IMG/VR virus record: IMGVR_UViG_3300042923_000524
Span: 64,001-128,000 of that record
Reading direction: 5' to 3' (one strand)
Origin: a virus
DNA: 64,000 nucleotides
How positions within the stretch are numbered: position 1 is the first letter of the stretch; each line of letters begins with the position of its first letter. The notes below the pieces were generated by a model that made no database searches, was not told the DNA's origin, and worked only from the letters and a program-made list of their open reading frames with translations. Position numbers and translations under genes: made by a program. Shown in pieces: positions 2,699 to 63,800 of this stretch.

Positions 2699-2763
2699 AA
2701 CCTATCCTCGCTTTTATATTTATTGTTTAAAAATTGACCTTAAAAACGTTATTTGGTGGTCAT

Positions 2764-3975
2764 TTACTGTAATACCACATCTTTAATCATTTCAACCTTG
2801 CCATCTGTTAGTATAGAAATAGTCTGTGAAGCCACTGTTGTACAACCAAAAGTTACGCTGAAATCATTATAGCCTGAAAGACAACCTGTAGAAATAATGT
2901 ATCTACCATTATTTTCAGACACGATATTGAAATTATGTAAATGTCCTTTATAATATAAATCATATATTACATTATCCATGGAAATTTCATTCTTTATTTG
3001 TTGTTTACCGTCTTTTACTCCATTATTTCCATGTACAAATTTACATTTTAAACCTTTTATTTCTTTTACTATTTCTTTATCAGTATGTCTTCTTTCAATA
3101 ACTGTAAGTCTATTATTTTCACTCAACTCTTTGTATTTTCCAAGTTGCTCTCTAATAATAACCTCTGCATTATCTCCGTCAAGATTAGATTGATAATCAC
3201 CATTCATACGGTCATGGTTTCCATAAATTGAATCATATTCAACATTGCAATATTTACAAAGAGCAGTTAGAAATCTATAAATAAGTTCTATTGCCTTGTT
3301 TATTTGCTGTGATTGGTTGAATTCACAGAATTGAGATTGATTTTTTCTCATAGATAAATGCTCAATCACATCACCTGTGTTTACAACAAATATTTTTTTA
3401 ATCCCATACATTTCAATATATTTATAACACTCACTGATTAATTTATCTATTCTTTGATTTGCAATTTTCCAATTGTAATAATTACCCTTACAATCATCTA
3501 TAATATAACCTATATGCCAATCAGATATATGAACTATCATTTCATATTCACTATTAATATTAATCGGTTCTACGCAATATTCAGGAATTGTAATAGTACA
3601 ATTATCTTCTAAATATTGTTTCAATTCATCAGCAATACTAATTGATTTTACAAAATCTCTTTTTATTCTATTTAAATCAGTTTTTTCTTTTGATATTTGA
3701 AATTTTAAAGTGTCTAATTCTCCAACTTTTTCTCTAATAGATTGAAGTTGTGTTTTTGACTTAGTTTTATCTTGTTCACTTCTCAGTACAGGAATTATCT
3801 TTTGTAGTCCATAAATTCTCTTCCGTGCTTCGTCTGGACTTAATTTCTCATTGAATAATAATTCCCAAACTTCACTATTTTCCAAATCAAATATTCCACT
3901 TTTCTTATTAGTGATTAATCTATCACAATAATCAAGGAAACTTTCATTTTCTTTTCTTAGAAAATCGCTATTCAT
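2764..3975 (-). CDS. Calcineurin-like metallophosphoesterase (YonJ-like) with N-terminal HTH/coiled coil
   Basis: Motifs SDWHIG, GDVIE, GNHDR, FVHG, GHLH. Confidence 0.8.
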   Translation of the reverse strand: MNSDFLRKENESFLDYCDRLITNKKSGIFDLENSEVWELLFNEKLSPDEARKRIYGLQKIIPVLRSEQDKTKSKTQLQSIREKVGELDTLKFQISKEKTDLNRIKRDFVKSISIADELKQYLEDNCTITIPEYCVEPININSEYEMIVHISDWHIGYIIDDCKGNYYNWKIANQRIDKLISECYKYIEMYGIKKIFVVNTGDVIEHLSMRKNQSQFCEFNQSQQINKAIELIYRFLTALCKYCNVEYDSIYGNHDRMNGDYQSNLDGDNAEVIIREQLGKYKELSENNRLTVIERRHTDKEIVKEIKGLKCKFVHGNNGVKDGKQQIKNEISMDNVIYDLYYKGHLHNFNIVSENNGRYIISTGCLSGYNDFSVTFGCTTVASQTISILTDGKVEMIKDVVLQ

Positions 3976-9809: not shown

Positions 9810-10298
9810 TTAAATTGTCCAATCTTTTTTAGGTGTTATTATTTCAAGACTTTGCCAACCTTTAGGTATAATATATAATATTCCATTAGTTGTCTTTAAT
9901 CTATGATTACCTGAATCACTAACAAAGAATTCTGCTACATTCTTGATTGTTAATTTTCTATACCAAAATAAAAATGGAAAATAGTAAATTCTATCCTGAC
10001 ATCCAACATTTGTTGATTCCTTCATTTATATTCTCCTTTCCATCAAATTGAAATTCTATTGTAATTATAAATTTGAATTAAAACCTGTTTTTATATTATC
10101 TATAATGTAATCTATAAACAATTTACTTGGATTAAATGTTTCTTCAATAAAACCATTTAAATCATGATTGTTTAACAATGCAAATATTGCAAATACTGGT
10201 ATTATAATTATCATTATTATCAAACAGGGTATAGATAATATTGTACAAATTATATTTCTAATTCTTTTATACATATTCTCTCCTTTCAAAATCCCCAT
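9810..10298 (-). CDS. Two small hypothetical proteins (9810-10025; 10065-10298, one TM helix)
   Basis: ORF track, AAGGAG RBSs. Confidence 0.5.
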
Positions 10299-10321: not shown

Positions 10322-10909
10322 TTAATCAATTTTAATAACTTTATCATCTTTAGTATTCATAATATAAAAAGGTCTTTTGACTCCACACCCATGCTTCTCA
10401 GATGCTTCTAATCCCTCTTTTATTCTATCTATAGTACTTTTATCCTTATTCTGTGATAAAACAGCCATAGCAAATTGTTTTCCAGAGCCACTAGTTACAT
10501 AATCATCTTCTGATTCTAAAACTTGACCATTGTTTTCTATTATGTATAATTGATTTTTATAGGCAAGAATTATATCACCATTTATACTTTCATATCCGTC
10601 TTTATATGTGGTACATCTATAATCCCTAGCCAAACTCATTATTTTAGTTGCTGTATGCTTAAAAATATGTTCAATATTAACTTCGTTCTTCAAATGTTTA
10701 ATTTCACTAATTAAACCATCTTCAGTAGAAAGTATATTTTGTAACTTATAATCTCCGCATATAGCCATTAAAACATTTGAATTATCTTTTGCTTTAAATA
10801 CTTTCTTGTTTTTAAATAGTTGCTGACAATATCCATTAGAACCTAATGAATCTGCACCTATGTATACACAATCTTGTTCTTTATCAAATACCCCTATAAT
10901 ACAAGTCAC
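10322..10909 (-). CDS. HslV/proteasome-beta-like Ntn hydrolase
   Basis: Starts MTCIIG (N-terminal Thr nucleophile), GADSLG, KKVF, GSGKQFA. Confidence 0.7.
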   Translation of the reverse strand: MTCIIGVFDKEQDCVYIGADSLGSNGYCQQLFKNKKVFKAKDNSNVLMAICGDYKLQNILSTEDGLISEIKHLKNEVNIEHIFKHTATKIMSLARDYRCTTYKDGYESINGDIILAYKNQLYIIENNGQVLESEDDYVTSGSGKQFAMAVLSQNKDKSTIDRIKEGLEASEKHGCGVKRPFYIMNTKDDKVIKID

Positions 10910-12362: not shown

Positions 12363-12456
12363 TTAAACTTTTTTCACCTCCTACATTAATTCTATCATGG
12401 TTATTTTGTTTGTCAACACCTAATTTTATATTTGTTTTTATAAACTTATATTTTGA

Positions 12457-23656: not shown

Positions 23657-26600
23657 ATGGAAGAAACAAAATTTGAAACCGCTTTAAAAATCTGGATGGT
23701 AGAAAATGGATATATAAACAAAGGCTGGAGATTTAGCATAGAAAGTAAATCAGCAATAGGAAATTCTGATTTAGCTGAAGTGATATGCAAAGCATATGAA
23801 CCAAGAAAAAGAAAACCTTTTTATATTACATTTAAATACAACTTTGTAAGGGAACAAATAAAAACAGATACGATTCAAGTTAATTAGAGGCAATATGCCT
23901 CTTTTTATTTCTCTTAATTCCTACTAAAACACTAAGATATAAATTATATCAATTAAATATATTACATATAAAAACTAAACAATTCAAACAATATACAAAA
24001 ACACCTACAATTCAAATAAATAAATAATCCTGCCAAAATAATCATAAACACCATAAAATAAAACCAGCCTATAAAATTGTATAATTTGTACCATAAAAAC
24101 ACTATGTATAAATCTGTATATTTATACACAGAAACAACCCAAATCCTGCATAAATATCCAGCCTTTTAAATGCGTTTTAAGACATTATTTTTATATTAGT
24201 CATACACTAATACCACCAACTTTTTATGCATCACAACCCATTGCAATTACTACATTATACATTGACTGCATACGATTATTTACATCAAAATTTCCACAAA
24301 ATCGTAAAAATATCCTAAATACTGTAAATTTTAGGGTATACCCTCATAGGGTAGTAGGGTAAAATGTGCATATCATATGCATATTAATTTTATATATGTT
24401 TTTATATAATAGCCATCTAAATTGTATAAATTGTGAAAAATGTTTTAAAAACTCACACAATTTGATCCCATTTGGTGAACTTGGGACTTAGTATTTTTAT
24501 TGATAGAAACATATAATAATAGATATAAAATTAATGTTTGACAATAAGAATATATCTATGTTAATATTAATATAATAAATCAAATATATTAATAAGGAGT
24601 TGTTACAATATGGTAAAGGAATTAATAAACTTTTTAAAAGAATCAAACTTTAACTACTTAGAAATAAAACTAAATGAAGATACCACGAGAACAATAGACA
24701 TAAAAACAAATTCAGAAACAACAATTAAAAAACACTTAAAAGAATATATAAATAAAAATTATAAGATAGAAAAGAAAACAATAAAAAGAGGTTTTTAACC
24801 TCTTTTTATTTTATCATAAATATATTGTTATATATTTAAATACACATATAAAATTAATTGTTGACATACATATAATAAAGGATTATACTATATAATATAA
24901 TAAGTAATAAATCATAAGGAGTTGAATACTGTGACTAAATCTAAAACACCTACATACACAAAGAATGCTTTAAAAATATCAGAGTTAGCAATAAATTTAA
25001 CTTCAATTGCTGAAGACGATAAAAAGCAAATTAATGAATATACTTTACAAGAAGTATTAAATGAAGCAAAATATATATTAAGTTGCTACAATGAATCAGG
25101 ACATATGTTAAATGAAGATTTAGATTCAGACGATATTGAAACAAGAAAACAGGCACAAAAACAAGTTAACCAGTTAAAAAAATATATCATCAAATATAAT
25201 AAATAGGAGATGTATTAAATGAAAAAAATAGAATATGAAGCGTTAGGATGGACTAAGAAAGGTATTGTTTATAGAAAAGGTAATATTAAAGTAAGGCATG
25301 CAGCAAAATTAAACGAAGCAAACGGAAAAAGAACCGATTATATAAAAGTAGAAATTGACGGAAAATTGATAGATAATAATTATAAAACATTAAACGAAGC
25401 ATTACAGAAATTATAAGAGCTTGAAAAATAGCTCTTTTTCTTTTCTCAATCTTTCAACCAATTCTGTAATTTGAGGACATTTAAAATTTTAGAAATATAT
25501 CATAATGAATATAAAATTATATATTGACATATAATTATAATGGGTTTATAATTAAAGAAAATACAAATTAATTGGAGGTTTTAAACATGACTAAAAAAGA
25601 ATTATATATGAATAGAATCAATCATGCAATAATTACAAAGTATGACATTGAATTAGTTATTTTTACTGAAGGTCAAAGACATCCAGACTGTTATTACAAA
25701 GATATAGAAACTAATAGATGTTATGAAGAAACAGGAACAAAGAATTTAAAAAGTCAATTTGAGATTGTAAAAAGAAGAATCAAAAATGCTGATTTTGAAA
25801 ATACAATGAAAACTTGTCAAATACCTGAAGCCGAATAAAAATAAAAGGAGAAAATAATGGATTGGATTTTATCAATAGTATCTATGGTAATGCTTTGGAT
25901 GATGGGCAATAAAAATAAGTATGCTCCATTTATAGGGATAATTGCACAAGTGCTATGGATATATTATGCAATATCATTAAAACAATATGGATTATTAGTT
26001 GGAACTATTGGATATTTAGTTATACATATTAGAAATGCTGTAAAATGGCAAAAGAATTAATTTGACCATAAAATAACAATTTCAAAGACTATTATAAAGC
26101 CTTTTGGATGCCCTCCAGAGGCTTTAATTTTATCTATGAATAAACATAATAGCATTATAGCAGTATTATATATTATAATATCTGGATGCCTTAAAAACGA
26201 TTTAAAAGCCTTGAAATTGTAGTAAAGTTATATTTATTGAGATGGCAGCAACGTATATTTTAATAATTTTAAATTAAATAATGAATATAAAATTTAGTTA
26301 TTGACTATAATAATATTGATATGATATAATTAAATTAATACATATTAAAAAGGAGTGATTACCATGACAAGTAAAGATATAAAAGAAATAGTAGAAGTAT
26401 GGAAGGCTCAACCAATAGAAAGATTTAGAGATAATGTAGAAAGTTATACAAGAGCAATAAAAAGACATGAAAACGAGATACAAGAAATATTATTAAAAAT
26501 GCAACAATTAGATGTTAATCATAAATATTATATTGATAAAATGAAGAATATGAATAGTGACATTAAAACAGCATTAGGATTTTTAAAAGAAGACAAAGCA

Positions 26601-29600
26601 CTTGTTGAAGCATCGCAACCAGAGCTTGAAAAAGCAGAAAATGAAATAAAAATACTTGAAGAGTCAAAGAAACCTCAATTTGAAGTATTAAAAAACTTTG
26701 TAGAGCAATGGAAAACTGAAGCTATAAATTATTATTTAGAACTTCTTAAAAATGGCTATGATGGCAAAGACGATTATATAATAGACTTATTACAAAGAGG
26801 AGAAAAATATATAATAAATCTTTACACAATAGAAGCTAAAGCAAGGCTAGTAAATATGATAACATTGATAAAAGAAAAGACTGGCGAAGTAATATCTTGT
26901 AATTTATACGGAAGTGGAAACAATCAAAAGTTTGGTTTTGAGGGAACAGTAACAGGAGAAAAGAAAACAGTAAGAGTCGAAGCAATTTTAGCAGGTGGAT
27001 GGAATATTCAAAAACTACATGTAAGACTATTAATAAATTAAAGAGTTAGAAATAACTCTTTTTTCTTTTAATAAGAATGAATATAAAAATTATATTTGAC
27101 AATACTATTGTTAGCGTGTTAAAATGAGTTATAATCTAAATTTAAGGAGTGAGTATTTTATGAGTATGTATATAATAGAAGTTAACGAAGACGGCGAAAA
27201 TATGCAATATGAGTATGGCAGCAAGGCACATGCTGAAGAGCATTATAATTTTGAAGCACATTGTACAATGTATGAATATATAGATGGTAAACATTATTAC
27301 ATGAAATCTAAGTAAATATGATTATAAAATAGGCTGAATAAAGCCTATTTTTTTTATGTATTGACTTCCTATAAACTCATGTTACAATTAAAGAGAATAC
27401 ATAACACATATAAAATTAATAAAGGAGGAAACGAATTATTGAATGTATTATCATTATTTGATGGAGGCTCATGCGGTCAAGTAGCATTACAGAGGGCAAA
27501 TATAAAAGTAGAAAAATATTATGCTAGTGAAATAAATCCAAATAGCGTAAAAGTAACACAAAAGAATTACCCTAATACAATACAGCTTGGAGATGTAACA
27601 CAACTAAACAAAGAAAAATTATTAAATTTAGGTAAAATTGATTTATTAATTGGTGGTAGTCCCTGCGAAGATTTAACAATAACCGCAATTGATAGAAAAG
27701 ATATTAACAAAGGTTTAGAAGGTAAAAAGTCAAAGTTGTTTTATAATTATGTGGATGCTCTTAATATTATTAAACCTAAATACTTTTTACTTGAAAATGT
27801 TGCAAGTATGACAAAAGAAAATATAGATATAATATCTAGTGAATTAGGAGTAAAACCAATATTAATAAATAGTAATTTAGTATCGGCTCAGGATAGGGAA
27901 AGACTTTACTGGACTAATATTACAGGTATTGCACAGCCAAAAAATAAAGAAATTTTATTAAAACACGTCTTGCAGCGAGATGTAGAAGAAAAATTTTACT
28001 ACAATAAACCCTTTGAATTTTATGGATTAGATAAAAAAGTATGTGCGAAATTGTTAGTAAATTCTCATGATTTAGTTAAAAGAGTTTATAATCCAGATTT
28101 TAAATGTGCAACATTAACAGCTGTACAAGGTGGATATCAAGAGAAAAAAGTTTATATAAATAGTAGAGTTAGAAAATTAACACCAATAGAATATGAAAGA
28201 CTTCAGACTTTACCAGATAATTATACATATGGAGTTAGCAATACAGCACGCTATAGTATTTGTGGAGATGGTTGGACAGTTGATATAATAGCACATATTT
28301 TTAAAAATATATAATGACTTATATAAAATTATCAATAGTTATTGACATATAAAACGTTGTAGTATAATATAATATATAAGATACTACATAAAAAAGGAGT
28401 GAAGTCATGAAGATATATTATACATTAAACTCCGAAGAACTTGGAGAAGAAGCAAAGAAAGAAACATTAATAAATATTTATAATGAATGGCTGAGATATA
28501 AGAAAGATGATAAAGAAACGGGAGACAAGAAGACATATTATTTTATTAAACATGAAATAGAAAACAATGTTGATAATACAACAGAAGGAAAAGTTTATAA
28601 AAGAGGTAATCAAATTTATTTTAAATCAATATAATATTAAGGAGTTGTTATAATTGGCTATTATGACAGATAAAGAATTACAAAATATAGCAAGTGATTT
28701 ATTTCGTAAATATTGGAATATGGATTTAACTATTTCTGTTTCGGTTAATCCTAAAATGTATAAATGGTCTGCAAGATGTTACCCTATGACAGTTGGGAAA
28801 CATTAATAAATAGAGGATATAAGAAAAGAATTTAGCAGTTTATTAATTGCAGCCGAAAGGCTGTTTTTAATTTCACGACAAAACACTTCTTTCATGGTCA
28901 TTACTGGAGCAGATTATTTTTAAAAATCATGTATCAACTTTAAACTAAAAGCATATAATAAATTAACCAAATACAAATATAAAACTTTTAAAATATTTGT
29001 TGACAGAAATTTCTAGCATATGTTATAATGAATTATCGAATAAATTATAGAAGGTGAAATCATGAAACAATATAGAACATCATATAAAAAAGTTAATGAC
29101 TTATGCAACTTATTAGAGTATAGACTTGTAAAACATGAATGGTTAGGGAAAACAGATTATTTTTATAATTACTCTCTTGTAAAAGATGAAAACGGACGTT
29201 ATAAAGAAACAATTCTAAAAACAACTAGCTTGAAAAATGTTTATGAATGGTTATTAGAAAATGGAATCAATTATAATAATGGCATAAAATATTAAATCTC
29301 GACTATGCGAGTATAAACAGACTTTAAGCATAGAGCGTTAACAGGTTTAACAGCCTGTTAGGTAGTAATAAATAATAAATTAATAGGAGTGATTTATCAA
29401 TGCCAAGTAAAACAGTAAGAGAAACGGAATATAATAAAACAATCCAATATAAAGACGGACAAATGACATATTGTATCAACTATAGAAAAGAATTTCATAA
29501 ATCATTTATAAATGGTTTTAGATGGGTAGAATGTTAATTCAATAAAATCCAAATTTGGTCATCATGTAAAAATTTAGGAGGTGCGTATAATGTGTAGAAT

Positions 29601-38235: not shown

Positions 38236-39747
38236 TTAATATAAAAATTAAAAGGAGAGTGTATTAAATGTCATTAGCAACATTTAAATCAGAACATGAT
38301 GATTGGCAACAATTTATGCAGGAAGAACACTCAATGGAAGAGTATATACAAAAATTTGACATAAAACTTACTAGAGAAGATATATTTGGGATTGCTAAAC
38401 AGGCTTTAATGATTGAGTATATAAAAGATTTAGCAATTATAATGAATTATAAAGTAATTGAGTAGGGGTGGGAGTATGAGTGAAAAAGTAGAAAAAGCAA
38501 TAGATATATCAAAGTATAAACTAGGGCAAGTAATTAAAGACTTAAAATGTCCTCGTTGTAAAAGCAAAGGAGGAATGCGACTTATGGGGTTATATCATAG
38601 AGAAACAAATTCACACGAATTAGAATGCAGTTGCTTTTACACCCAACGTGTATACCCAAAGAATGTTGAATTTACATATGAAGAACCTAAAGAACCAAAG
38701 AGAAAGAAAGGAGATAATAATTAATGAAAATTATAATGTTAAATATAAAATGGTTTTTAGTTTCAAGTATAACATTTTTCTTAATGAGTGCTATGATATA
38801 TCTATTTCAAGATGATATAGAGCGTTTTGCGACAAGAATTATAACGTCTTTGGTTATGGCTTTAGTATTTAGACTAATGGGTTTAAACGAAAAGGAATAA
38901 CAATAAAATTTATCATTTATTGAAAGGAGATAGTTTATGTTAAAATTAAAAGAATTAAAACAAACTTGTAGTTGTTGTCCTAGTCAATGGGAAGGAACAA
39001 CTAAAGAAGGCAAGTATGTTTATATTAGATGTGATAATAATGAACTTGAAGTCGAAACAGCAAAGAACGAAGAAGATTGGTATAAAGGTAAATTTAAAGT
39101 GGTATTTGTTGATTATAACAGTGATTATGGTGATGTAATGGATACTAATGAAATGTTGTCTCGTACAGGAATTCAACTCATATAGTCTCATCCAATTTCT
39201 CATTTGGTTAGCATTTTGAAAGGAGATTAATATGTTCGATTTTATAGCATGGTTATTTTTTCATATTTGTAAAATAGTATTTTTACCAGTGTTTATGCTA
39301 ATATTCTTTATAAAACATTTAGTATATGCACTAGGTAAAACTTTGGAAGATTGTAGTCATATATTATTGGCTAAGTTTCCAGAAAATAATTAAATACTAA
39401 TATAAAATTTATATAAAAAATATGTTGACAGGTTTAGAAATATTTGATAAGATTGGTTTAAGATATTAAATAATATTTTGGAGGTAATCGATATGGATAT
39501 GGATATTAAATCTATAAAGAGTAATGAATTAAAAACACAAGTTGATTTAGTATGTACTCACTGTGGAAAAGAGCATGATATCTTAAAGTCAAAAGAAGGA
39601 AAAGATTTTGTTTTTGAAACAGATTGCACTGAAGAATGGTGTATATGTGTTGATTGTCAAAATAAATGTAATCAATAGATTTCGTCCGAATATTAGATTT
39701 ATAGAAATATTAAAAAAATAATATAAAAATAAAAAGGAGAGAAAGAA

Positions 39748-44305: not shown

Positions 44306-44327
44306 TATAAAACAAGGAGGAAAAAGA

Positions 44328-45025: not shown

Positions 45026-46336
45026 ATGAAAATAGGAAAAGATAGAGATTTACTAGAGAAAGAATTAGCAAAAATATTCGTAAAGTATAATTTAGATAAT
45101 AATGTAATCAATAAAATTAAAGAAGAATTTATATCAAGAGGGGTATCTTCAGGAGAATTCTTGTCTATTATAGATGGCAAAATTCAGATTGAAACAATCC
45201 CTCTTAATATGCTTTGTCTTTTAACAGAGTTGTTTTATAAAGAAACTACAGAGCAAAATATAAAACCAGAAACTTATTTTACTGAACAAGAAATTAACAC
45301 AGCTAAGAATTTTAGACGAGAGTCAGAAGAACAATCTAAATATCCATTAGTATTTGAAAATGTCATGAAGATTGGTGATGACCACTATGTAACATATAAA
45401 ACAGCTCAAGAAGTTGCTGGTTACTATGCAAAGAATTTAATTGTTTATAACAAACAAACTCAAAGAAATGCAAAGTACAGTGAGTATCAAGATAAAATTG
45501 TTGAAATGATAAGTATAAATAAATCTTCTATTTCTGATATTGCAAAAGATATTGTTGAGGGCAGACAAATTACAAACTTTATCACTTTTAATATTCTTCA
45601 AAATGGCGAAGAGAATTTTGAATATGATGCTAAAAATAAAACTTTAACTGTATTTGAAGGTGAGATTGATATACTTGACGGTTTTCATAGGTCAATGGGA
45701 ATTCTCTCAGCAGTACAGAAAGAGCCTAATGTAAAATATATCACTGGAATTAATATAGTGAATTGGGATATTGAAAAATCAAGAAGATTTATTGTACAGG
45801 AAGATAAGAGAAATAAGATTAATGCTTCTCATGTAAAATCACTTAATCCAGATAGATATGAAAACATGATTATTAAAAAACTAAATGAGAGTAGTTCAAG
45901 TGATTTAAAAGGCAAAATTACTACAGATAATTTATTTATAAGAAAACATAAAGCTTTAACAACATATGATGTTATTAATAATACTATTCAAAAAGAATAT
46001 AAAGACATTAAAACCAATAGAGATGCTTCTTTAATTGCTGAATGGTTAATTGAATTCTTTAATGAATTAATTGGTTTGTATCCAACTGAGTTTTTAACTG
46101 AAATTGAATCTACTAAGGAAACTTCATTTATTAACAATGAGAATATGTTCGCAGGTTATATTTCACTTTCAAAAGAATTACAGAATGTTAGCAATTGGAG
46201 ACAAAAACTACAGGAAGTGATGAGTAAAATTGATTTTAGCGTTAATAATTCTAAGTGGGAAAGTCTTAAATCTGCAACAGAATTAAACAAGAGATTATTA
46301 AAGAATATATCTAATTATTTTAGAGAGATTGTTTAG
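45026..46336 (+). CDS. DndB/DGQHR-domain protein, SPbeta YopQ (SroE)-like
   Basis: NKQTQR, NFITFNI, DILDGFHR motif, FIVQED; precedes an integrase-fold gene as yopQ precedes yopR. Confidence 0.65.
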   Translation: MKIGKDRDLLEKELAKIFVKYNLDNNVINKIKEEFISRGVSSGEFLSIIDGKIQIETIPLNMLCLLTELFYKETTEQNIKPETYFTEQEINTAKNFRRESEEQSKYPLVFENVMKIGDDHYVTYKTAQEVAGYYAKNLIVYNKQTQRNAKYSEYQDKIVEMISINKSSISDIAKDIVEGRQITNFITFNILQNGEENFEYDAKNKTLTVFEGEIDILDGFHRSMGILSAVQKEPNVKYITGINIVNWDIEKSRRFIVQEDKRNKINASHVKSLNPDRYENMIIKKLNESSSSDLKGKITTDNLFIRKHKALTTYDVINNTIQKEYKDIKTNRDASLIAEWLIEFFNELIGLYPTEFLTEIESTKETSFINNENMFAGYISLSKELQNVSNWRQKLQEVMSKIDFSVNNSKWESLKSATELNKRLLKNISNYFREIV

Positions 46337-46365: not shown

Positions 46366-47331
46366 TTGAAACATTTTATTATGTATAATCCAGAATTAAA
46401 AAATGTTTATCTTAATACTATTGACAACGAAGGAACTAGAGAAAATATTGGATATACTTTTCAAAAGGCTAGAATACTAGAAGATGAAAAAGGAAAAGAT
46501 ATATGTCATTTTAATTTTGATGAATTAGGTGAATTATGGAGTAGCTTCAGAGCAAAAAGTTTTGCTGCCATTACTACTAAAGTTAGTATTATAGTTAAGT
46601 ATATTGACTTTTGTATTGATAAAGGATTGGCTGATGTAAACTACAATTGGGCAAAGATGTACTTTAATGAAGATGGATTAAGACCATATGTAAGCAAAGT
46701 TGCTATAGGTAATAAAATAATTGACAAAGAAACTTTAGAAGATATAATTGATTTTTGTGCTAACGCTCAAGATGCTGTAATCTTTGCATTATTATTTGAA
46801 GGTGTAAAGGGTAGACCAATACAAGAAAATGCCTTTGAAGAAGTTAGGAATCTTAGAATGGTTGATTGTAATACTGATACTAATGATATTATACTAAGAC
46901 AAGATGATGGTAAAACAAGAGTTATTCAAATATCTGAAAGAACTATGAATTTAATAGTAGATGCTTATAATCAACAAACGTATTTAAGAAAAAATGGCGA
47001 ATCAACCGCAAAACTTAAAGAGATAGAAATGATTGATACAGGTTATGTTTTAAAATTAGGTGATATAGGCAAGAATTCCAATTCGAGTGAAGATAGAATA
47101 AGTCATCAAGTTTTATTTAGAAGACTAAAGAATATTGCAAAAGCATATGGAAATAGTTTTTTAACACCTACTAATATTTACATGAGTGGAATGGTTGACT
47201 ATGCTCAAAGACTGCAAACTGAAAAAGGTGTAGAATTAGACAATAATGATTATATTCATATATGTGAGAAATATGGAATAGACCCTAAAAGATGGTATAA
47301 GATAAAAGTGGAGATTAAGCAGTATCTATAA
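46366..47331 (+). CDS. Integrase-fold protein lacking catalytic motifs, SPbeta YopR/MrpR master-repressor-like
   Basis: DAVIFALLFEGVKG...EEVRNLRMVD; LTPTNIYMSG replaces HxLRH. Confidence 0.65.
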   Translation: MKHFIMYNPELKNVYLNTIDNEGTRENIGYTFQKARILEDEKGKDICHFNFDELGELWSSFRAKSFAAITTKVSIIVKYIDFCIDKGLADVNYNWAKMYFNEDGLRPYVSKVAIGNKIIDKETLEDIIDFCANAQDAVIFALLFEGVKGRPIQENAFEEVRNLRMVDCNTDTNDIILRQDDGKTRVIQISERTMNLIVDAYNQQTYLRKNGESTAKLKEIEMIDTGYVLKLGDIGKNSNSSEDRISHQVLFRRLKNIAKAYGNSFLTPTNIYMSGMVDYAQRLQTEKGVELDNNDYIHICEKYGIDPKRWYKIKVEIKQYL

Positions 47332-47608
47332 TTTAAAAATAAAGTAGTTTTATTACTACTTTAACAAATACAAATATAAAATTTATTTAATAAAAGTGTT
47401 GACAAAGGCAAAAAGTGGTAGTAGTATTATAGATAAGAGGTGAGTATATGAAACAATATGGATATATGATTCTTGTTTTAGGTATTATTGGAGTGGCTAT
47501 AGCAGTGGTAATAAGATTTATAAAATAAGCTAACCAAATTGAGATTTGGTCGTGATTTTAGAAAAACTAGCCGCTGCGAGAGTAGGGTTGTAGAAAAGGA
47601 GAATAAAT

Positions 47609-50437: not shown

Positions 50438-50580
50438 TTAATAATAAATATAAAATTAAATATATAAACCACTTGTAATTTTTTATTCTTAGTAGTATAC
50501 TAATATTAGGAAATATACAAAAACAAAAATATAGCGTTTCCAATGGTTGTAGCAATCGCAAATGACCATAAAATCGGGAT

Positions 50581-53350
50581 TTGGTCAGAAGTATAAATTT
50601 AGGAGGTATAACGATGATAGAATTATTTTGTTTAGAACATGACTGTGACTTTAACATTAATGGTAAATGTGAAAGAGTAGATTTACAAGCTAGGTATGAT
50701 GCTTCTATTGGTTCTGTTGTATTAGAAACAGAAAATTATGAGTTATGTTATAAAAGAGAGAAATAGAAAATAATTCATGGAGGGCAAACAAGATGCAATT
50801 AAAATGTATTTTTAGTATGAAAGGTATAGATATTACTCTTAATAAAATCTATGAATTATTAGACGAAGATAATTTGAATTATTACATTTATGATGATATG
50901 AACGGATATAGGGCATTTAGTAAATTTATGTTTGAAAAGATTCAATGAAAACGATATTCTATCTAAATATGAAAGGAGATTAAATAATGGAACAAAATTA
51001 TTTAGCAACATATAGAAATGGTGATAATTTTGAATATGCATGGTTTGGAACAGAAGAAGAGGCATTAGAATGGATAGATATAGAATCTCAAAAATATACA
51101 AATGTAGAAGTAGTGGAATTAAAAGTTGTAAATGTTCTATTTGAAAGAGACTAGCAAATGGTTATTCTAATGAAATTTAGAAAGGAATGTTTAATAATGA
51201 ATAAATTTCAAAAATTTGTAAGTAGGAAAGCAAAGCAAATGATTCGTAATGAAAAAAATTCTCGTAGTTTTAGATACTATAGAAAAGAATGGAGATTTAT
51301 AAAATCAGAAGTTCTTGATAGTCAAATTGATTTTGAAAAAACAAATAATTTTAAAGAAAAACAATACTCTTATTTATCTGGTGAAACTGACCCACATTGA
51401 TAAAATAACGACAAAATGCGAGATTGATAGGGAGTTGATAAATTGAAGGTAATTATAAAAACAGCATATAATGTAGACTTAAAATATATTTACTCTCATG
51501 TAAAACCATTGGTAGATAAAAATGTATTTATTAAACGTATTAGAGATGAAGTAAGTCAATATGTAAAAGCCTGTTTAGACACTTCCACAAATGAAAATGG
51601 GAATGGATTAGAAGATAACATTATCTACTATCTAATTCAAGATGGATATGCTGAAGCTAAATCAGAACATGCTAAGTATTTAATTACTGAATGAATATTT
51701 TAGGAGGCGGTTTATATGAACAAATATATAGTAAGAATTACTCCATTATATAAAGATACTTTAAATCAATTTGGAAATATAGTTTTTGAGTCAAAATTAA
51801 TTAATAGTTTGGTGGGATTGGAATCTGAATTATCAATAAATGATATATGGAATATTCCACATGTATTTAAAGTAGAAGAAGATGTTGAAGGAAAATTCGA
51901 TTAAAATGTTAATAGTATATGTGTTTTGAGGTGATTTAATGAATGAAAAAGAAGAATGGATTATAGATTATTTAAAAAATAAGACCGCATTTAAATTTAT
52001 AGATATGCTGGATGAAGATTTTGTTGAAGCATATATAGATGAATTTGAAGTTAAAAGCCAAAACATGACGTTAGGAGCTTCTAAGTGTAAGGAATTATCA
52101 AAGCTGCTTGGTAGTATGTATAAAAAAGGCTTATTGAATAGATTTCCTCATGGTGTGAGAAGTGGTTATAATCAAGATTATGCGAATTTTAAAGCACCTA
52201 AGTGGGTATATTCATATGAATTAATAAATTAAGACAAAATGTGGATTTGGAGAAAATATTGAAAGGAGTTATATATTATGGGTTCAGCACAACAAGACTT
52301 TAATAAGTTTATAGAATATAAAAGAAAGTTTAGAAATAAAGTAATAATTAAATCTGTTATCGGTATTATTTTTGTGACATTTATTATATATAAAGTATTA
52401 TTAATATAATTCCAATAAAAGGTGAAATTGATTGGGAGTTGGTAATAAAATGAAAAATAAATTAATTGGTAAAAAAGTAGATATAATCGACAAAGAATCA
52501 ATATATTATAAACATTGGGGTTTTATAAGAGGTTTTGATGGAGATGTTTATCATATAAATGGTGGTTCTATATCTTTAAATAATGGTGACTTAACTCCCA
52601 TATTTGATAGAAATCAATTTTCAGTTAGAAGAAGGCAAGAAGGAGACAATAATGAAGTGTAATAACTGTACATGTAAGAAATGTAAAAATTACGAATGTG
52701 AATATCATTGTAAGGATATGACTGATTTAGAGAAACAAATATGTGATATGGATGTATCTGGAGAATGTGATTGTTTTAAAGGAGAAAAAGATGTTAGAAA
52801 AAGTTAATCAAAACAAAGAATTAAACAAATATGTAACTATAGTTTGTCAAGATAAGATTGGTGATAATTTCTTAGAAGCCACTGTCAAAGTTAATGCCAC
52901 AATAATAATTGATAATGATGACATTAAAGATTTCTCTAAAGAGATAAGAAGATTAATACTTGGATATAAAGTTTAAATAAAACGAATATTTGATTAGGAG
53001 TTGAGAATATGGGATTAAAAGCAATACCAAATGTTTATAGTTATAGATGTGATGAGTGTAATACAGGTTCAGACCCAGTTCAAGAATATGAATCAATTAA
53101 AGAATGCCTAGAAGATTTAAAAAGTGCAGGATGGAAGGGAAATTATAAAAAACTCCTGTGTCCTGAGTGTGCAAATAAATCTAAATAAAATGAATGTTTG
53201 GAGGTAATAAGAATGTCATATTATGATTATTTAGATGATTATAGATTTATGCATCCAGAAGAATTTGATGATGCAGAAGAAAATGAAAAGAGAGCATTAA
53301 AAGAAGCTGAAGTGATAGCCAAGATTTTAAACAATATGTCCTCAAAATCA
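50581..53350 (+). CDS. Array of small hypothetical genes, several Cys-rich
   Basis: About 12 ORFs of 45-100 aa with RBSs, many separated by the 18-bp palindromic motif. Confidence 0.6.
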
Positions 53351-57810: not shown

Positions 57811-60800
57811 TGGAAAGGTTTTTAATTAAGTTAACAGATTTATTAAATAATGATTTTACAAAATTACCTTGTAGTGATAGTTGTAAAGATTGTAAATTAA
57901 ATATAAAACTTGATGATGAAAACTATAATGGTTATACAATTTGTGATATACTTACTGATTTACAAGATGTATTAAGTAAAATATAACTGACCACAAAAGA
58001 ACAATTTGGTCGGGAAATAATATAAAAATAAGGAGATAATTTAATGCAAAAATATTTTTTAGCAACAAAAGATAGTGAATTTGCAAAAGAAATGACTAAA
58101 TACATAGAAATGTATGAACAACAAAGGGTGTTTGTAAAACAATTTTTTAAAGATAATGAAATAGAAGGAACTCAATATATTGTATCTGGAGATGGTTGGG
58201 TTAATAAACCTTTTGAGGAATGGAATAAGAATAAAATTACACTTAATATCAACCCCACAGAAAAAGATAATCAAAAATTCGGAAGTATGTTGACTAAACC
58301 TAAACATCATGGATTGTGTGCATTTAAAAAAGGTTCAAAAATTGCAAAAGAATTTTCAGATTTATGCTTCAAAGAAAAGATTGTGGTGAATCTATATCAG
58401 CCTAGTTTAAGAGATTATTTTCAATCAATTGGATACTCAGCATATACATCACATTTACTTGATAATGAAGACAATAGTTTTTATTTAAAAGTAGAGAGTA
58501 AGAATCTAAAAGAAGATGATATACCTGAATATATGACAGAAATAAAAGCAAGTGATTTTTATAAAATATTAGAAGAAAGAAAAGAAATATAAGACAATAA
58601 AACGATGATTTGGTTGAAAGAGAGGTTTGGGTATGTATGTAATATATAAAGTTTCCGTAGATAAAACTTATTATATTGACGATATTGATACAAAGATTGA
58701 AGTTAAACTCATTGAAAGTTATGATAATCAATCTGAAGCTGCAAGATTGTGTAGCATATTAAGTAAAGAAAATAAGGATGAAAGAGTAAAATATAAATAT
58801 GGATATTTAAAAGATAAAAATTAAAACTACTCAAAATGCTTATTTAGAGGTAACTTAAAAATAGAAAGGAGAATTAAATGATAGCGTTAATAAATTTTAC
58901 AAAAGACCTGTTTATTCCAAGACAGGATGCAACAAACTTAAATTTACAGTACGAAGAAGTAGGAAAGATTGGAGTAAATTATCAAAGTAATATTGAAAGA
59001 ATGACAACTAGTTATTACTATTATAAAGATGAATTAATCAAAAATGAAGAGGACGGAAGATATTACAAAGATGATAAAAAGATTGACAATTATTATGTGT
59101 ATGACAGAGTAAAAGATGGTATAGATTATGTGTATGTTAAAAGTGAAAATCATATTGTAGATTTACTGGAGTTTGCTCCTAAATGTAATTATTCATATTC
59201 AATACAAAAGTGTATAAAATCTAAAGAGCCTACAGTACAAAATATACAATCATTATTAAGCATTATAGAAGAAAAAACAGAAGCAATAAATAAAACTATT
59301 GATATAATGAGCAATCAAACATTTAATCAGAAATGTAATGTTCATGTAGGTGGAGGGTTAATTGCTACTTATAATGATTTAATGCTAAAAGAAGATTCTT
59401 GTACCGATGCATTACAATCTGAACTAAATAATGGTTGGAGAATAATTGCAGTATGTGTGCAACCAGACCAAAGAAGACCTGATTATGTGTTAGGTAGATA
59501 TAACCCTGAGTTAGATACATATAGAAAAAATAGTGCGGAGAGATAAGATGTCGATAGAAAGATAATACCATTGAAATATTTTAGTCATAAATTAGAAACT
59601 AATACATAGCATATATTAATTAATATAAAATTATAAATAAGGAGGTTGAATAAAATGATAGAAATTTTAGGTGCAGAATTAGACATAGCATTTGAAGAAC
59701 TTAAAATGAATGTACTAAAGACATATGAAATAATAAACAAACCTTGGGATTACTGTGAAACATATCAAGTATGGGAACTTTCTGAAGAAGATTTTGAAAA
59801 GATTTGTAGCATACCAGACAACGAATGGAAAGACAATTGGGGTTGGTGGAGATATGCAAAAGGTTCAAATCTAGGAAGTGTAGGTCATAGGTATAATATA
59901 AATGGTCATTACATTTCTGCGTGGGATGGTTATAAAAGAGAAAATACAAAAGATTATCCTTGGAATAGGGAATATAAAACCCTCCTACAATATTTCTGCA
60001 ATGAAATTGGTGTATCAACTGAAAAGAATGTTTGTGCTGTAGCTGTTGATTTAGCAGAGCAGAATGGAATTACAATGGCTGAATTGTTTAAGAAATATCA
60101 AGGCTAGTGGGGAGCAATCCCCTGATACATAGTTTCAACATAATAGGTATTTTATAGGAATTTTAAAAAAGGAGATAAATATGGAAAGAAAAATTAAACT
60201 ATCAAAGGGTGAAATAGAATCATTTTTTATAAAAGGTCAAAGAAATCCTTGTAATTGTGGCTCAAATTGTTTTCATAAGGAGAATGATGAATTAATAACA
60301 CTTGGAGTTTGTAATGCTTGCGGTGAAGATATATATGAATATGAAGAGCGAGAAGAATTTGACGAGTGGAAATATAAAAAGTAAACTGTCTTCAAAAGGC
60401 AGATTTGGAGGAAAAATATGAATGGTTTTAATTTAGTAAAAAAGATAATAGATGAATTAAAAGAAGAGGATATGCCAAGATTCATGAATGAGTTAGGATG
60501 CCCGAATTATTTCAGGTTAGAACAAGTTTCTGATGATGAATGCAATAATTCACCTTGTATAGAATGTTGGAAACAGGCATTAAACAAAGAGTATGAAGTT
60601 TAAATAAAAGACAGGTTTTAAAGACAAATTGAAAGGAGGATTTTTTATGAATAATACTATCACAATTACACAAAAGGAATACAATGAATTACTAGAATCA
60701 CAACGGTCTTTAGAAGCATTACAATGTGCAGGTGTAGACAATTGGTCAGGATATTGCGAGGCACAAGAGATTTTTAATAGTGAAGATTAAATCACATCAT

Positions 60801-63800
60801 AACAATTAATTGGAGGTAATAAAAAGATGGAAAATAAAGAAATAGCAAAAAGAATAAGTGAAATGGTATGGAAAAATTATGAAGATAATGACATATTTGC
60901 AGTACAATTATTTGTAGAAAAAATTTGTTTACCTGAAGGAGTTCAAAGTTATACTCAAGAAGACCTAGAGGAATATATATTAAAAATAGCAAATAATAAT
61001 TTTATTACAGAAATTTAAATTAAAATAAAAAAGGAGATATATAAAAATGAAAAAAGCAATAACAATAATCCTAGTAATAACCATTATCCTAACATCATTA
61101 ATCCTAACATCATGTTCGCAACAATCTCTTAACGATGAATATCAAGCAACGATACAATCAATAGACGGCAATAAGGTAACTGCTTCAGTAGGCAATATAA
61201 CTAAAACAATATACATAAACGAAGATAATATGACTTTAGGAGCAATCGGCAAATATGAGTTTCTTAAAATCAAAGCTGGAGATATAGTAAGTATTAAGGT
61301 TTCTGAAGGTAGAATTGTAGATGTTAATTTAGTAAAACAGAAGTAAATAATAAATATTTAATAACTAATATAAAATTTATGGAGGTAAACATACATATGG
61401 CTAGACAACCAAAAGCAGAAATAAATAAGGGTAGTAAAAAGAATACAACAACTAAAGTAGTTACAACTGAAACTAAAAAATCAAGAGGCAGGGAGAAAGG
61501 ATTTACTGTTGAGCCTACTGTGGCTATTATAAATATTACCGACACACCATATAGAATTGATGAGTCAGATGGTCGCAATAAAATTATTCAGAAGTTGATT
61601 ACTAAAGTAAGAACAAAAGAAGAAAAAGATGATGAATTCAATAAAGGTGTTAAAGTAGGGGAAGAGTACACAAGATATGTGAACGTATTAAAATGTTACC
61701 GTTCAGACTATAAATCGGCTTTCTATAGACTTCACGAAGTAATGGTTGAAGATGAAATAGAAAAGAGAAAAATAGTTTCATTAGAAGAATTCTTAAAAAT
61801 TTATAGAGAAATGAATGTCTTGTTGGATAAAACATTTCCTGTGAAGGCTGAATAGGAGGTAGGTTTTATGACATATGAATACTACTGTCCTTATTGTAAA
61901 ACTTACTCCGAAGTTACTTGTAAGGTAAGTGAATATGAAGAAGAAATTCAATGTGGTTGCGGAGGTTCTGCTAAAAGAAATTACTCTCCTACAAGAACAA
62001 TTTATAAAACCACAGGATTTTTTACTACAGATAGGGATGATAAATAATTATGAAAGAATGGTGTTTTGAGCATCCAATATTAACTTTCTTTATAATCTGT
62101 TTAATATTATTAGAGTTAGATTGTTATATTACATATTTAAACAATAGACTAAAGTTAAAACTTTTTATTTTAGAGAATAAGAAAGAAGAAAATAAAAATA
62201 AGTACACTATATATAGTGGTGATGGTAAAATAAAACACAATATATAGTAACAAAATGACCATAAAATGAGTATTTGGATGTAAGTTGGAGAGGAATAGTA
62301 AATGATAAAGAATTGTAGTAACTGTGGAAATAAAGGTGCGTTGTGTTGCTCTTATTGTGGTGACTATGAAGGTTGGAAACCAATAAAAGAGGAAAATACC
62401 AAAGTAAGAAAAGATGGATTGACCGAACAAGAAGGAAAAGTAATGGATTCACTAGTTGATGCGTGGAATGAATATGTTAAATTAGAAAAACAACACCCAA
62501 CGGATATTGATGAGTTTTGTGATGGAATACATAGATGTCAACATGCTTTGACTATAAGAATTTTAAGAAGAGATTATTCTGAAGGTTATCCTATAAAATA
62601 ATAAATATAAAAAGGAGTTTAGTAAATGAAAAAATTAGTTATAAATTCAGGCAAGGCTTATGTGATGGAAAATAAAGAGGATTATAATTTAACTGATAGT
62701 TATGAACATGCAAAAGATTTTAGATGGTGTTGGTTATGGTTTTCTAAGAAAACATTTTTAAAAGGTATTAATAAAAGATTTGGTAGTGGATGGGAATTTA
62801 AATGGATGTAGTCAGAATAAGGATTCTGAGGACATATAATAAGGAGGATATATGAAAACTACAATAATGCAATGTAACTGTGATAATTGTAACGAAATAA
62901 TGACTGAATTTGAATATGAGCAAGCTATTAAAATTACAATATCAGCAGATTTACCTAATCCACAAGGTAAATGTGGTCAGTTTGGTGGTATAACGATGAA
63001 ATTATGTAAAAAGTGTTCTGAAGAATTAGGGATAATCAATTCGGAAGAATACCATAACTATACGTATTCTCATAGTAGATTTATTAGCAAAATTAAAGAA
63101 TGTAAAACAAAGATTTTAAAATTGTGCTTTAAGAAATAAGGAGATTACAATGAGTAAATATGTATATGAAGACCCTATTAAATTAGGATATATTCAATTT
63201 AAATTAACCAAGAAACAGCACAATAGTCTATTCAAATATAGACAAATTAAATGGACAGATAAATACGAGTATTATTATAATGAACATGAAATAATAATAC
63301 ATAAATTCTATAATTGGAAAGCTGTTTTATTACAAACAATTTTCTTTCCAGTAGAAATATTGATGAATGGAATAGTAAATGCAAAAGAAATTTATAAAGA
63401 AATCTTGGAATTATATAATCAAAAGGAATCTGGAAGTTTTTCTGGTGATGATGTGTCTAGTGGAACAGATAAATATAATGAGATTATGGATATTATAAAA
63501 TAATAATAAATATGATAAGAAAGGAGAAAAATATGAAAGTTGCAAATTTATGTGATTATTGCAAACATGAAGTGCCTGAATGTGAAAACTCAAAAGTAGT
63601 GTTTGGCGTAGATTGTAAGGATATTTTAGCCTATTATAATCAAGGTATAGTTGATAAAAAATATCTTGATGCTACTGTTGCATGTGATGGATTTTCTGAA
63701 AAAGAATAGTTATACATATTAATAATAGCAAGTTTCAACAGAAGCACGATTTGATTAGGAAAGGAGATATAAAAGTTGTTTAATTTAAAAGAAGAAGAAA

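Follow-up and report, generated by a model that had tools for sequence, protein, structure and literature searches.

The gene junctions of this phage carry many copies of a 25-28-nt dyad, motif A (T-G/T-A-C-M-A-Y-AAAA, five free bases, ATTTGGT-Y-G-R-A-A), which, judged from its sequence, is a local variant (AYAAAA-N5-ATTTGGT in a 28-bp frame) of a junction palindrome of SPbeta-like phages (ATAAAA-N5-ATTTTA in SPbeta, phi3T and c-st). The element looks like a DNA-level, dyad-symmetric putative protein-binding site that fences accessory genes.

Motif A was searched for in the whole phage genome (137,947 bp, or 138 kb), of which the window, the 64,000-nt stretch analysed here, is a part. The exact pattern AHAAAA-N5-ATTTGRT occurs six times against 0.33 expected, a number reached in none of 100 shuffles, and 21 times against 9.65 expected if up to one mismatch is allowed. 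A position matrix built from 19 training sites, with a 15-bit threshold and first-order Markov shuffles as the null, gave 35 genomic hits of at least 15 bits versus 0.33 in the shuffles, the training sites numbering only 19; excluding overlaps leaves 34 sites, of which the window contains 20. The preliminary description, which had proposed enrichment over shuffled sequence as a check, was thus correct in reporting a repeated palindromic site, and all of the copies that it named (29542, 33250, 35051, 52234, 52977, 57993, 58597, 60392 and, on the minus strand, 10042) were recovered. The length of 18 bp given there is too short: the conserved frame extends over 25-28 nt and comprises two conserved blocks about one helical turn apart around a free centre. 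All 22 of the 22 sites aligned share T at position 0 and A at position 27. The outer GACC...GGTC arms are present in a subset of copies only. Two one-mismatch matches were rejected as members, namely 27083, which is a motif B copy (see below) plus a -35 hexamer, and 32510, a low scorer missed by the matrix that lies within the reading frame 32402-32743. The copies in the window are as follows.

1616..1640, minus strand: motif A, 17.9 bits, intergenic, in the minus-strand late cluster
2735..2759, plus strand: motif A, 25.0 bits, orientation opposite to that of the minus-strand genes on either side; a motif B copy (2701) adjoins
10040..10064, minus strand: motif A, 22.0 bits, junction in the operon leading to the YonO-like RNA polymerase gene
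25455..25479, minus strand: motif A, 16.1 bits, anti-oriented, intergenic; same centre as the syntenic site of the relative G001
28876..28900, minus strand: motif A, 16.1 bits, anti-oriented, intergenic
29537..29561, plus strand: motif A, 23.3 bits, directly past a stop codon; next start 28 nt on
30137..30161, minus strand: motif A, 25.7 bits, anti-oriented; terminator-like hairpin on one side, motif B promoter on the other
33245..33269, plus strand: motif A, 24.6 bits, stop codon 1 nt before
35046..35070, plus strand: motif A, 23.4 bits, stop codon 2 nt before
39189..39213, minus strand: motif A, 16.5 bits, anti-oriented, in a tight stop-to-RBS junction
47528..47552, plus strand: motif A, perfect palindrome ACCAAAT-TGAG-ATTTGGT, 200 nt past the MrpR-like gene, downstream of a motif B promoter
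50563..50587, plus strand: motif A, 32.1 bits (top score), immediately following the TnpB gene's conserved 3' flank; centre TCGGG the same in G001
52229..52253, plus strand: motif A, 21.9 bits
52410..52434, plus strand: motif A, 21.3 bits
52972..52996, plus strand: motif A, 16.8 bits, overlapping the upstream stop codon
57988..58012, plus strand: motif A, 31.4 bits; centre GAACA the same at the syntenic G001 site, both flanking ORFs different
58592..58616, plus strand: motif A, 27.4 bits
60387..60411, plus strand: motif A, 25.1 bits, right arm extending into the RBS
62256..62280, plus strand: motif A, 28.5 bits, where a block shared with G001 ends
63733..63757, plus strand: motif A, 23.1 bits

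Hits of at least 12 bits are intergenic in 36 of 41 cases. In the 22 co-oriented sites the previous stop codon mostly lies within about 9 nt of the first base of the 25-nt matrix site, except in three sites where it is further off (up to 196 nt), and the next start follows 6-56 nt, mostly 6-31 nt, after the last base. These distance-to-stop statistics agree with the location first described, at the boundaries of small accessory genes, just past a stop codon and before the next RBS. The orientation with transcription described at the same time is a real bias (21 copies with and nine against, p = 0.04), although a modest one; the inverted copies, nine of the 30 at junctions, still occupy the stop-to-RBS position, which favours a DNA-level over an RNA-level reading. 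No conserved -35 or -10 element was found at a fixed distance from the aligned sites, and promoter-like sites are not enriched (132 versus 135.6). Motif A is not a selected hairpin: pairing covariation is absent in any register, the pairing fractions in four registers equal the column-shuffled values, and the mean MFE of -2.7 kcal/mol, versus -1.7 kcal/mol in shuffles (z = -0.6), indicates no stable stem.

In SPbeta-like phages, the pattern TAAAA-N6-TTTTA occurs 29 times in 89 kb of SPbeta (1.57 expected), 20 times in 50 kb of phi3T (0.9 expected) and 13 times in 50 kb of Clostridium phage c-st (2.6 expected). The column counts of 22 motif A and 27 SPbeta sites agree at positions 0, 5, 6-10, 16, 17-19 and 27, a shared frame that includes T0, A5, A16 and the near-invariant A27, and differ only at positions 20-22, which read GGT here and TA in SPbeta. 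In both phages the element occurs within arrays of small early genes, at or directly past the upstream stop codon and some tens of nucleotides ahead of the following start; the TAA of the SPbeta palindrome serves as the stop codon in 10 of 27 copies. Motif A shares with this class not only frame and placement, but also its occurrence in many copies that keep their own centres at syntenic places.

A second element, the AT box here called motif B (AATAAYAAATATAAAATTA), is commoner than motif A in the window (77 copies versus 0.7 expected) and occurs in two contexts, immediately ahead of an RBS or of a -35 hexamer. In our reading of both motifs, motif B matches the core of the phi3T SroF box at 14 of 16 positions and its first 11 nt match SPBRE, while motif A has no likeness to the experimentally defined SroF/MrpR boxes beyond an A-tract. 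Several junctions have a palindrome and an AT box next to each other, in phi3T, SPbeta and c-st as well as in this phage. Two examples of motif B and the genes of the regulators and recombinase considered below are located as follows.

47360..47392, plus strand: motif B, directly upstream of a TTGACA-17-TAGTAT promoter
61354..61386, plus strand: motif B, directly before an RBS
45026..46336, plus strand: YopQ/SroE homologue of the DndB family with a ParB-like N-domain, proposed motif A binder
46366..47331, plus strand: MrpR/SroF homologue whose integrase fold is catalytically dead; proposed to bind motif B rather than motif A
37360..38235, plus strand: Xer-like tyrosine recombinase with a complete catalytic set, alternative putative binder or catalyst

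The protein encoded at 46366-47331 contains both MrpR Pfam domains and lacks the HxxR box, in agreement with its original description as a dead integrase-fold protein. SroF binds an asymmetric box as a monomer (PMC10516654; bioRxiv 10.1101/2025.11.27.690993). The SPBRE and Phi3TRE sites described in the same sources resemble motif A as dispersed multi-copy sites of the same phage family, found at promoters or just before ribosome-binding sites and oriented with the genes. However, they are asymmetric AT boxes for a monomer, and their counterpart here is motif B; motif A is separate and dyad-symmetric, lies beside or apart from such boxes, and has SPbeta homologues that are mostly away from SPBRE promoters.

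By elimination and analogy, motif A is tentatively assigned to the YopQ/SroE homologue, a ParB/DndB-fold protein encoded next to the MrpR/SroF homologue, whose operators the copies may be; we regard this as possible rather than probable. Homologues of yopQ and yopR are adjacent in SPbeta, phi3T, c-st, G001 and this phage, and these two adjacent lysogeny regulators are conserved in every relative examined. The YopQ homologue matches PF14072 at 36 bits, and in its AF2 model (pLDDT 88) residues ~115-264 resemble the N-domains of ParB, Noc and KorB (Z 7.1-8.0, rmsd ~3 A over ~97 residues). This fold similarity is moderate (Z up to 8.0) and confined to the N-domain, and no DNA-reading domain was identified in the protein, which weakens the assignment. 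ParB-family operator sets, such as the KorB OB sites on RK2 and the Noc sites, likewise consist of many palindromes on one replicon with a ParB-fold reader, which here is putative, and this phage encodes a ParB-fold regulator on the same replicon. However, the sites of ParB, Noc and KorB are contiguous palindromes with no free centre, motif A is located at cistron boundaries rather than promoters, and its binding by a ParB-fold protein is proposed by analogy. DndB, described as a ParB-like transcriptional repressor (bioRxiv 10.1101/2025.10.10.680097), binds the footprinted split palindrome TACG-N10-CGTA (PMC4507180); there, too, two half-sites lie across a free spacer, and here a DndB-family gene adjoins that of the master repressor. 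SroE is reportedly a further repressor on which lysogeny depends, with a possible role in stabilising DNA-bound SroF (bioRxiv 10.1101/2025.11.27.690993). The MrpR/SroF homologue would accordingly read the AT-rich motif B, while the YopQ/SroE homologue would read motif A as a dimer, with one half-site per subunit and the free centre between them. Copies bound at cistron boundaries might then contribute to silencing or insulating the small early genes in their long arrays, and because the same short conserved sequence occurs at many gene boundaries of related phages, these would also be the places where homology blocks end and accessory genes are replaced. Against assignment to YopQ, the SPbeta and phi3T palindromes are the same although the two YopQ proteins are only 38% identical, the interior of a tightly packed operon is an unusual place for a repressor and its road-block effect is putative, and the 11-6-11 geometry of motif A fits proteins of the tyrosine-recombinase fold at least as well. 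SroE was reportedly defined by Brady et al. 2023.

The 11-6-11 geometry also underlies a second, rather unlikely explanation, in which the copies are core sites (11-bp arms, 6-bp centre) for the Xer-like recombinases of the phage or those of the host, with the centre serving as an address: unique centres would limit exchange to the same slot of two co-infecting or resident relatives, so that genes are swapped slot by slot and their order is not scrambled. Tyrosine-recombinase core sites consist of two ~11-bp inverted arms around a 6-8-bp centre, as does motif A, with arms at positions 0-10 and 17-27, centre at 11-16 and T0 and A27 as dyad partners; in the best copy (53009-53036 of the genome) the arms match at 10 of 11 positions. 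Two intact Xer-like recombinases are encoded. The first, at 37360-38235, shows every residue of the R-K-HxxR-H-Y set in an alignment with XerA, which bears out its earlier description as catalytically complete, and the second (51544-52572 of the genome) has a near-perfect motif A copy ~440 nt upstream. Differing centres block ordinary tyrosine-recombinase exchange between copies. Within the genome no centres are identical among 741 pairs, which would preclude such exchange, yet among pairs syntenic between this phage and G001 the centre is identical in 6 of 31 (null 0.64, P < 0.0002). Same-centre partners, which core sites require, are therefore found only as allelic copies in different genomes, and the syntenic G001 copies retain their own centre although the ORFs on both sides are unrelated. 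In sequence comparison, the claim that homology blocks between related phages often end at junction palindromes survives: between SPbeta and phi3T, a palindrome is found no more than 30 nt from 7 of 34 block ends versus 1.0 at random, the junction-level count is 11 of 28 versus 20% expected (p = 0.013), and the crossover of the yoqH-yoqI indel falls within the left arm of a palindrome.

However, the same block ends are equally enriched at AT boxes (6 of 34 versus 0.44), suggesting that any conserved junction sequence behaves likewise, and the junction test is confounded by the concentration of both palindromes and gene replacements in the accessory arrays. The backbone DNA of this phage and G001 is 70-80% identical, which would leave 5-nt centres unchanged in about a quarter of true orthologues without selection. 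Gene-content boundaries between these two phages are not enriched at motif junctions (5/6 versus 47/65, p = 1). The one clean indel joins two copies whose centres differ. Among the enzymes, the 37360 recombinase is generic Xer-like, with XerA and XerD as its best solved relatives (E ~1e-23) and ordinary Xer-like recombinases of unrelated phages as its closest ones; it has no tie to this phage family and does not co-occur with the palindrome across the phages compared. The 342-aa recombinase has no homologue in G001, and in SPbeta YopP the fold is kept with Lys in place of the second catalytic Arg. Acinetobacter plasmid pdif sites and dif modules (PMC6449649) are similar in that accessory genes in the variable region of a replicon are bordered by several 11-6-11 Xer-type sites, but pdif sites are similar to the host dif and have been ascribed to host XerC/XerD, whereas the centres of motif A are all different and the role of a recombinase is putative. 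If such addressing were true, it would provide a phage-wide built-in system for modular exchange, allowing an ordered slot-by-slot swap of accessory genes, including anti-defence genes, with gene order kept.

It is unlikely that the palindromes are operators of a recombinase-fold regulator, either the protein in the SroD/YopP position or the Xer-like 37360 protein, binding as a dimer without recombination as an auxiliary repressor. The core-site geometry of motif A would suit such a protein, and the Lys of SPbeta YopP is as expected of a binder that no longer cuts. SroD is reportedly an auxiliary repressor. The text of the 2025 preprint (bioRxiv 10.1101/2025.11.27.690993) makes no mention of SroD. 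This reading is weakened by the identity of only 22% between the 37360 protein and SPbeta YopP, by the relationship of the former to ordinary recombinases of unrelated phages, and by the absence of a YopP-like gene beside yopQ-yopR in the 50 kb of c-st examined.

A junction signal acting on the polycistronic mRNA, as a target of a processing nuclease or of a per-cistron translational regulator, is improbable. The position of the element between stop codon and RBS, its sense bias (21 to 9), the two pistol ribozymes at equivalent junctions of the same phage, and the MazF-like and beta-CASP nucleases that the phage encodes are consistent with it. However, nine inverted copies at typical junction positions and the lack of structure and covariation argue otherwise, and the sense bias is explicable by strand composition because the C-bearing arm is the degenerate one and lies on a strand with a strong skew of G over C.

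The preliminary description also considered motif A as road-block operators of the MrpR-like master repressor, which is very unlikely, even though the phage encodes an MrpR homologue, the MrpR family reads long (~24 bp), genome-dispersed sites, and the YonO-like operon is preceded by a motif A copy, just as its SPbeta counterpart is by an SPBRE. Both in sequence and in its two contexts, motif B rather than motif A matches the SPBRE and the phi3T SroF box. The ten ChAP-seq peaks of SPbeta MrpR are reported only at SPBRE-bearing promoters (PMC10516654) and 24 of 29 SPbeta palindromes are more than 300 nt from any SPBRE, which speaks against this role. The SroF proteins of SPbeta and phi3T are 29% identical and their boxes differ, yet the palindromes are the same, and the monomeric binding of SroF to an asymmetric box does not suit a dyad.

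The integron-like system first envisaged, with gene-plus-site units excised or inserted within the array by the phage recombinase, is the most improbable of all, even though small genes carry the sites at their 3' ends and the phage has an intact tyrosine recombinase: an attC-like fold is absent, all centres differ, there are no duplicated cassettes or paralogous small genes in the genome, and the recombinase matches Xer proteins far better than IntI (45 C-terminal residues matched to IntI4, 2.5e-6). Sites of attC type are likewise imperfect palindromes at the 3' ends of small arrayed genes near a tyrosine recombinase gene, but they span 57-141 nt, function as single strands folded by the pairing of R and L boxes, and move together with their gene; motif A, at 25-28 nt, has none of these properties, and the retention of its centre in G001 between unrelated ORFs is the opposite of a site travelling with its gene. 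What stands of the original recombination-site idea is the placement at boundaries of small accessory genes, the two-arm geometry with a free centre, and the SPbeta/phi3T block ends.

Two other phage systems resemble motif A in arrangement. In T4-type phages, small non-essential early genes are separated by short conserved elements, the PeSL cassettes (Arbiol et al. 2010, PMC2839356), at which insertions, deletions and replacements distinguish related phages. PeSLs combine a strong promoter with a terminator stem-loop, whereas motif A has neither a promoter at a fixed distance nor a selected stem-loop. The stoperators of mycobacteriophage L5, some 30 13-bp asymmetric sites for the repressor gp71 that are thought to block elongation, resemble motif A in number, in their location in short intergenic spaces inside operons and in being mostly oriented with transcription. 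The L5 sites are asymmetric and bound by the immunity repressor, whereas motif A copies are dyads common to phages whose SroF repressors recognise different boxes.

The 18-bp pattern AHAAAAN-N4-ATTTGRT of the preliminary description (motif A) is a real repeat, with six exact matches against 0.33 expected. Alignment of its sites extends it to a longer element, T-G/T-A-C-M-A-Y-A-A-A-A, five free bases and A-T-T-T-G-G-T-Y-G-R-A-A, in which position 27 is A in all 22 aligned sites. Scanning the complete genome with a position matrix yielded 35 matches of at least 15 bits, compared with 0.33 in shuffles; without overlaps there are 34 sites genome-wide, 20 of them in the window. Its placement between genes and along transcription was also borne out. 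Intergenic positions account for 36 of the 41 matches of at least 12 bits, and co-oriented copies mostly start at most ~9 nt from the upstream stop codon, with 6-31 nt usually separating their end from the next start; junctions with motif A alone have a median length of 45 nt. Of the 30 junction copies, 21 are oriented with transcription (p = 0.04), and the nine inverted copies occupy junctions of the same kind.

When enriched inverted words were sought blindly, the palindrome that came first in each of three phages was TAAAA-N6-TTTTA, with 29 copies in SPbeta (45-134 kb; 1.57 expected), 20 in 50 kb of phi3T (0.9 expected) and 13 in 50 kb of Clostridium phage c-st (2.6 expected). The SPbeta copies lie at gene ends, where 10 of 27 supply the stop codon with their own TAA, and the next start, where callable, is typically ~20-30 nt and at most ~125 nt further on. 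Their flanks agree with those of motif A in the T six bases ahead of TAAAA (position 0), the A immediately ahead of it (position 5), the A ahead of the T-run (position 16) and the near-invariant A at position 27 (26/27 in SPbeta). The sole difference is in the right arm, TTTTA in SPbeta versus TTTGGT in the window phage, whose version is also carried by its distant relative, G001 (8 copies scoring 14 bits or more). Judged by these sequence comparisons, motif A is a junction palindrome common to SPbeta-like phages. A scan of viral contigs with the motif returned one contig, which is unrelated.

The virus record (137,947 bp, 27% G+C), of which the window covers positions 64001-128000, has direct terminal repeats, and the layout of the window is SPbeta-like, with a YonO-like gene of 863 aa and a block of MazF-like, TPR, YopQ-like (DndB family) and MrpR-like genes, the order of which is the same in phage c-st. 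The features concerned are the following.

42968-47331: module of a MazF-like toxin-domain protein, a TPR protein, a small ORF, and the YopQ-like and MrpR-like proteins; order matches CST027-CST030 of c-st
2075-2698, minus strand: ClpP-like protease, in the cluster near the YonO-like gene
4911-6350, minus strand: beta-CASP metallo-beta-lactamase nuclease (RNase J/CPSF-like), same cluster
10322-10909, minus strand: proteasome/HslV-like subunit, same cluster
54985-55545: AgrB-like peptide-processing protein (PF04647, 75 bits)

The module at 42968-47331 occupies the position of aimR-aimP in SPbeta. No close relatives were found by DNA search of the phage collection, or among viral contigs with a single-protein MrpR query. 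A profile search found nothing in genome contigs and, in viral contigs, G001 alone (130 kb; MrpR 37% identical; backbone identity to the phage under study, G000, 70-80%). Among the matches listed in a metagenome search there were only relatives of 30-34% identity; proteins 85% identical to the MrpR homologue and 89% to the YopQ homologue exist (P0002-P0004, P0009-P0011). The stretch is present in two soil-metagenome DNA runs, both possibly its source, and no RNA run was among those listed. Contig joints from these runs, with sides of just 20-29 letters, were not trusted. In a variant soil-metagenome contig, 537 nt at 61401-61939 are swapped for 556 unrelated letters, neither end being at a motif A copy.

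Self-comparison of the genome exposed a second repeat, motif B (AATAAYAAATATAAAATTA, with invariant ATATAAAA), of which the whole genome contains 77 copies scoring 15 bits or more, compared with 0.7 in shuffles. Its orientation is nearly always that of the genes, and it occurs either immediately ahead of the RBS or immediately upstream of the -35 element in a strong TTGACA/TATAAT promoter (e.g. 47360, 56387, 61354, 32120 and 39386); promoter modules of ~80 nt containing it are repeated at 11710, 12373, 56381 and 64110. The MrpR/SroF operator of SPbeta (SPBRE) and the SroF box of phi3T occupy the same two contexts in their own genomes and, as we read these sequences, motif B agrees with the phi3T box core at 14 of 16 positions and with SPBRE over the first 11 nt. 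Thus, it is likely that motif B, rather than motif A, is the operator of the MrpR homologue (46366-47331, plus strand), as predicted from sequence. This protein has above-threshold matches to both MrpR Pfam domains, and the solved structures most closely related to it are those of the phi3T and SPbeta repressors; the DNA-reading residues of phi3T SroF are mostly unconserved in it. SroF is a monomer when bound to its box of 26 bp (bioRxiv 10.1101/2025.11.27.690993). The phi3T-type AT box (AGAATAAAAATAAAATTA) also occurs in about ten copies in SPbeta itself, one of them just upstream of the -35 element of the yosX promoter, the spacer of which holds an SPBRE.

SPbeta and phi3T are models of the lysis-lysogeny decision, and much work has been done on their master repressor and the operators it binds; no mention of a second, equally abundant family of junction sites was found in the accessible literature on these phages. 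The genes common to every palindrome-carrying phage are the adjoining yopQ and yopR homologues, corresponding to SroE and SroF; SroD-F were reportedly defined by Brady et al. in 2023. The YopQ homologue (45026-46336, plus strand) has both QR and DGxHR, motifs that are invariant in the DndB family, and in its confident predicted model (pLDDT 88) residues ~115-264 resemble the N-domains of ParB, Noc and KorB (Z 7-8). DndB has been described as a ParB-like repressor (bioRxiv 10.1101/2025.10.10.680097) with a split-palindrome footprint, TACG-N10-CGTA (PMC4507180), and SroE is reported to be a second repressor required for lysogeny, possibly stabilising SroF on DNA (bioRxiv 10.1101/2025.11.27.690993). 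The palindrome and the AT box adjoin in several junctions of phi3T, SPbeta, c-st and the window phage. In the simplest model, which we put forward tentatively, two adjoining regulators would serve two dispersed site families. If the ParB/DndB-fold partner reads motif A, this would account for the need of two repressors and for the silencing of long small-gene arrays. This model ranks first, followed by crossover sites, a recombinase-fold regulator and an RNA-level signal. Further candidate binders of dispersed sites are encoded as follows.

12039-12663, minus strand: two small helix-turn-helix regulators (HTH_36; Cro/C1-type HTH_26), in the divergent control region between late and early clusters

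Address-coded crossover sites, an unlikely reading of motif A but the first of the alternatives, would account for the slot-wise mosaicism of accessory genes across a large phage family. In the closer pair, SPbeta and phi3T, 7 of 34 homology-block ends lie at most 30 nt from a palindrome against 1.0 at random, 11 of the 28 block ends within junctions are at palindrome junctions (20% expected, p = 0.013), and the crossover of the yoqH-yoqI indel, between two copies whose centres differ, falls within the left arm. However, AT boxes are enriched to the same degree (6 of 34 block ends vs 0.44), and accessory arrays are where both palindromes and gene replacements cluster. What these results establish, therefore, is that conserved junction sequences mark the edges of blocks, and not that a dedicated recombinase acts at the palindromes. 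Between G000 and G001, motif junctions showed no enrichment of gene-content boundaries (5/6 vs 47/65, p = 1; six informative motif junctions only); 27 of the 33 motif junctions are flanked by genes that lack a homologue in G001. Identical 5-nt centres were found in 6 of 31 syntenic G000/G001 pairs in an unbiased comparison (null 0.64, P < 0.0002), which, given the backbone identity, is not by itself proof of selection; within the genome no centre is shared among 39 sites.

That motif A is the operator of a recombinase-fold regulator is a still weaker candidate. The recombinase at 37360-38235 (plus strand) is catalytically complete, as had been described; its relatives are ordinary Xer-like enzymes from many unrelated phages, and it shares only 22% identity with SPbeta YopP, in which the second catalytic Arg is replaced by Lys. 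Outside the window, a third recombinase is accompanied by the best 11-6-11 copy of the site (L028 being a stretch of the same genome), and no homologue of this enzyme was found in G001.

Genome 51544-52572 (L028 1544-2572), minus strand: tyrosine recombinase, 342 aa, PF00589 and PF13495
Genome 53009-53036 (L028 3009-3036): near-perfect 11-6-11 palindrome TTTAAACCAAA-CCAAAA-TTTGGTTGAAA, ~440 nt upstream of the recombinase

An RNA-level signal is improbable. The mean folding energy of motif A is -2.7 vs -1.7 kcal/mol in shuffled sequence; a selected hairpin was rejected, and with it an attC-like fold and a terminator, the paired-site fraction equalling the column-shuffled value in four pairing registers.

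The option that motif A is an operator of the MrpR-like repressor, raised in the preliminary description, is now very doubtful, since motif B fits the MrpR boxes instead. The ten MrpR ChAP-seq peaks in SPbeta were reported at SPBRE-bearing promoters (PMC10516654), 24 of 29 SPbeta palindromes have no SPBRE within 300 nt, and SPbeta and phi3T have their palindromes in common even though the two SroF proteins share 29% identity and use different boxes. Least probable of all is the integron-type cassette site that had also been suggested: at the conserved-centre sites examined the ORFs on both sides are unrelated (BLASTP never better than E ~1), and a site that persists while both neighbours change is not part of a gene-plus-site cassette.

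Other readings were rejected at the level of the element. As regards promoters, -35/-10 elements are never at a fixed distance from motif A, promoter-like sites are not enriched, the TGACMA part lacks a partner -10-like hexamer at 16-18 nt, and position 23 is never A. A YonO promoter was rejected since YonO initiates one late operon in SPbeta (PMC5467207); an HU-like binder was looked for beside the YonO gene and none was found. The spacing of the Spo0A, CodY and ComK boxes does not match that of motif A.

Pistol self-cleaving ribozymes (Rfam RF02679; gathering score 34.5) are present at two junctions within early operons, a type of location like that of motif A, and the best-scoring motif A copy follows a TnpB-like gene.

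29297-29367, plus strand: pistol ribozyme, 64.1 bits
31501-31572, plus strand: pistol ribozyme, 59.9 bits
49124-50587: TnpB-like gene (437 aa), its 3' block and the motif A copy at 50563

The block of ~60 nt 3' of the TnpB-like gene is kept in G001 and runs directly into the motif A copy at 50563, which may mark the point at which any TnpB guide RNA would start.
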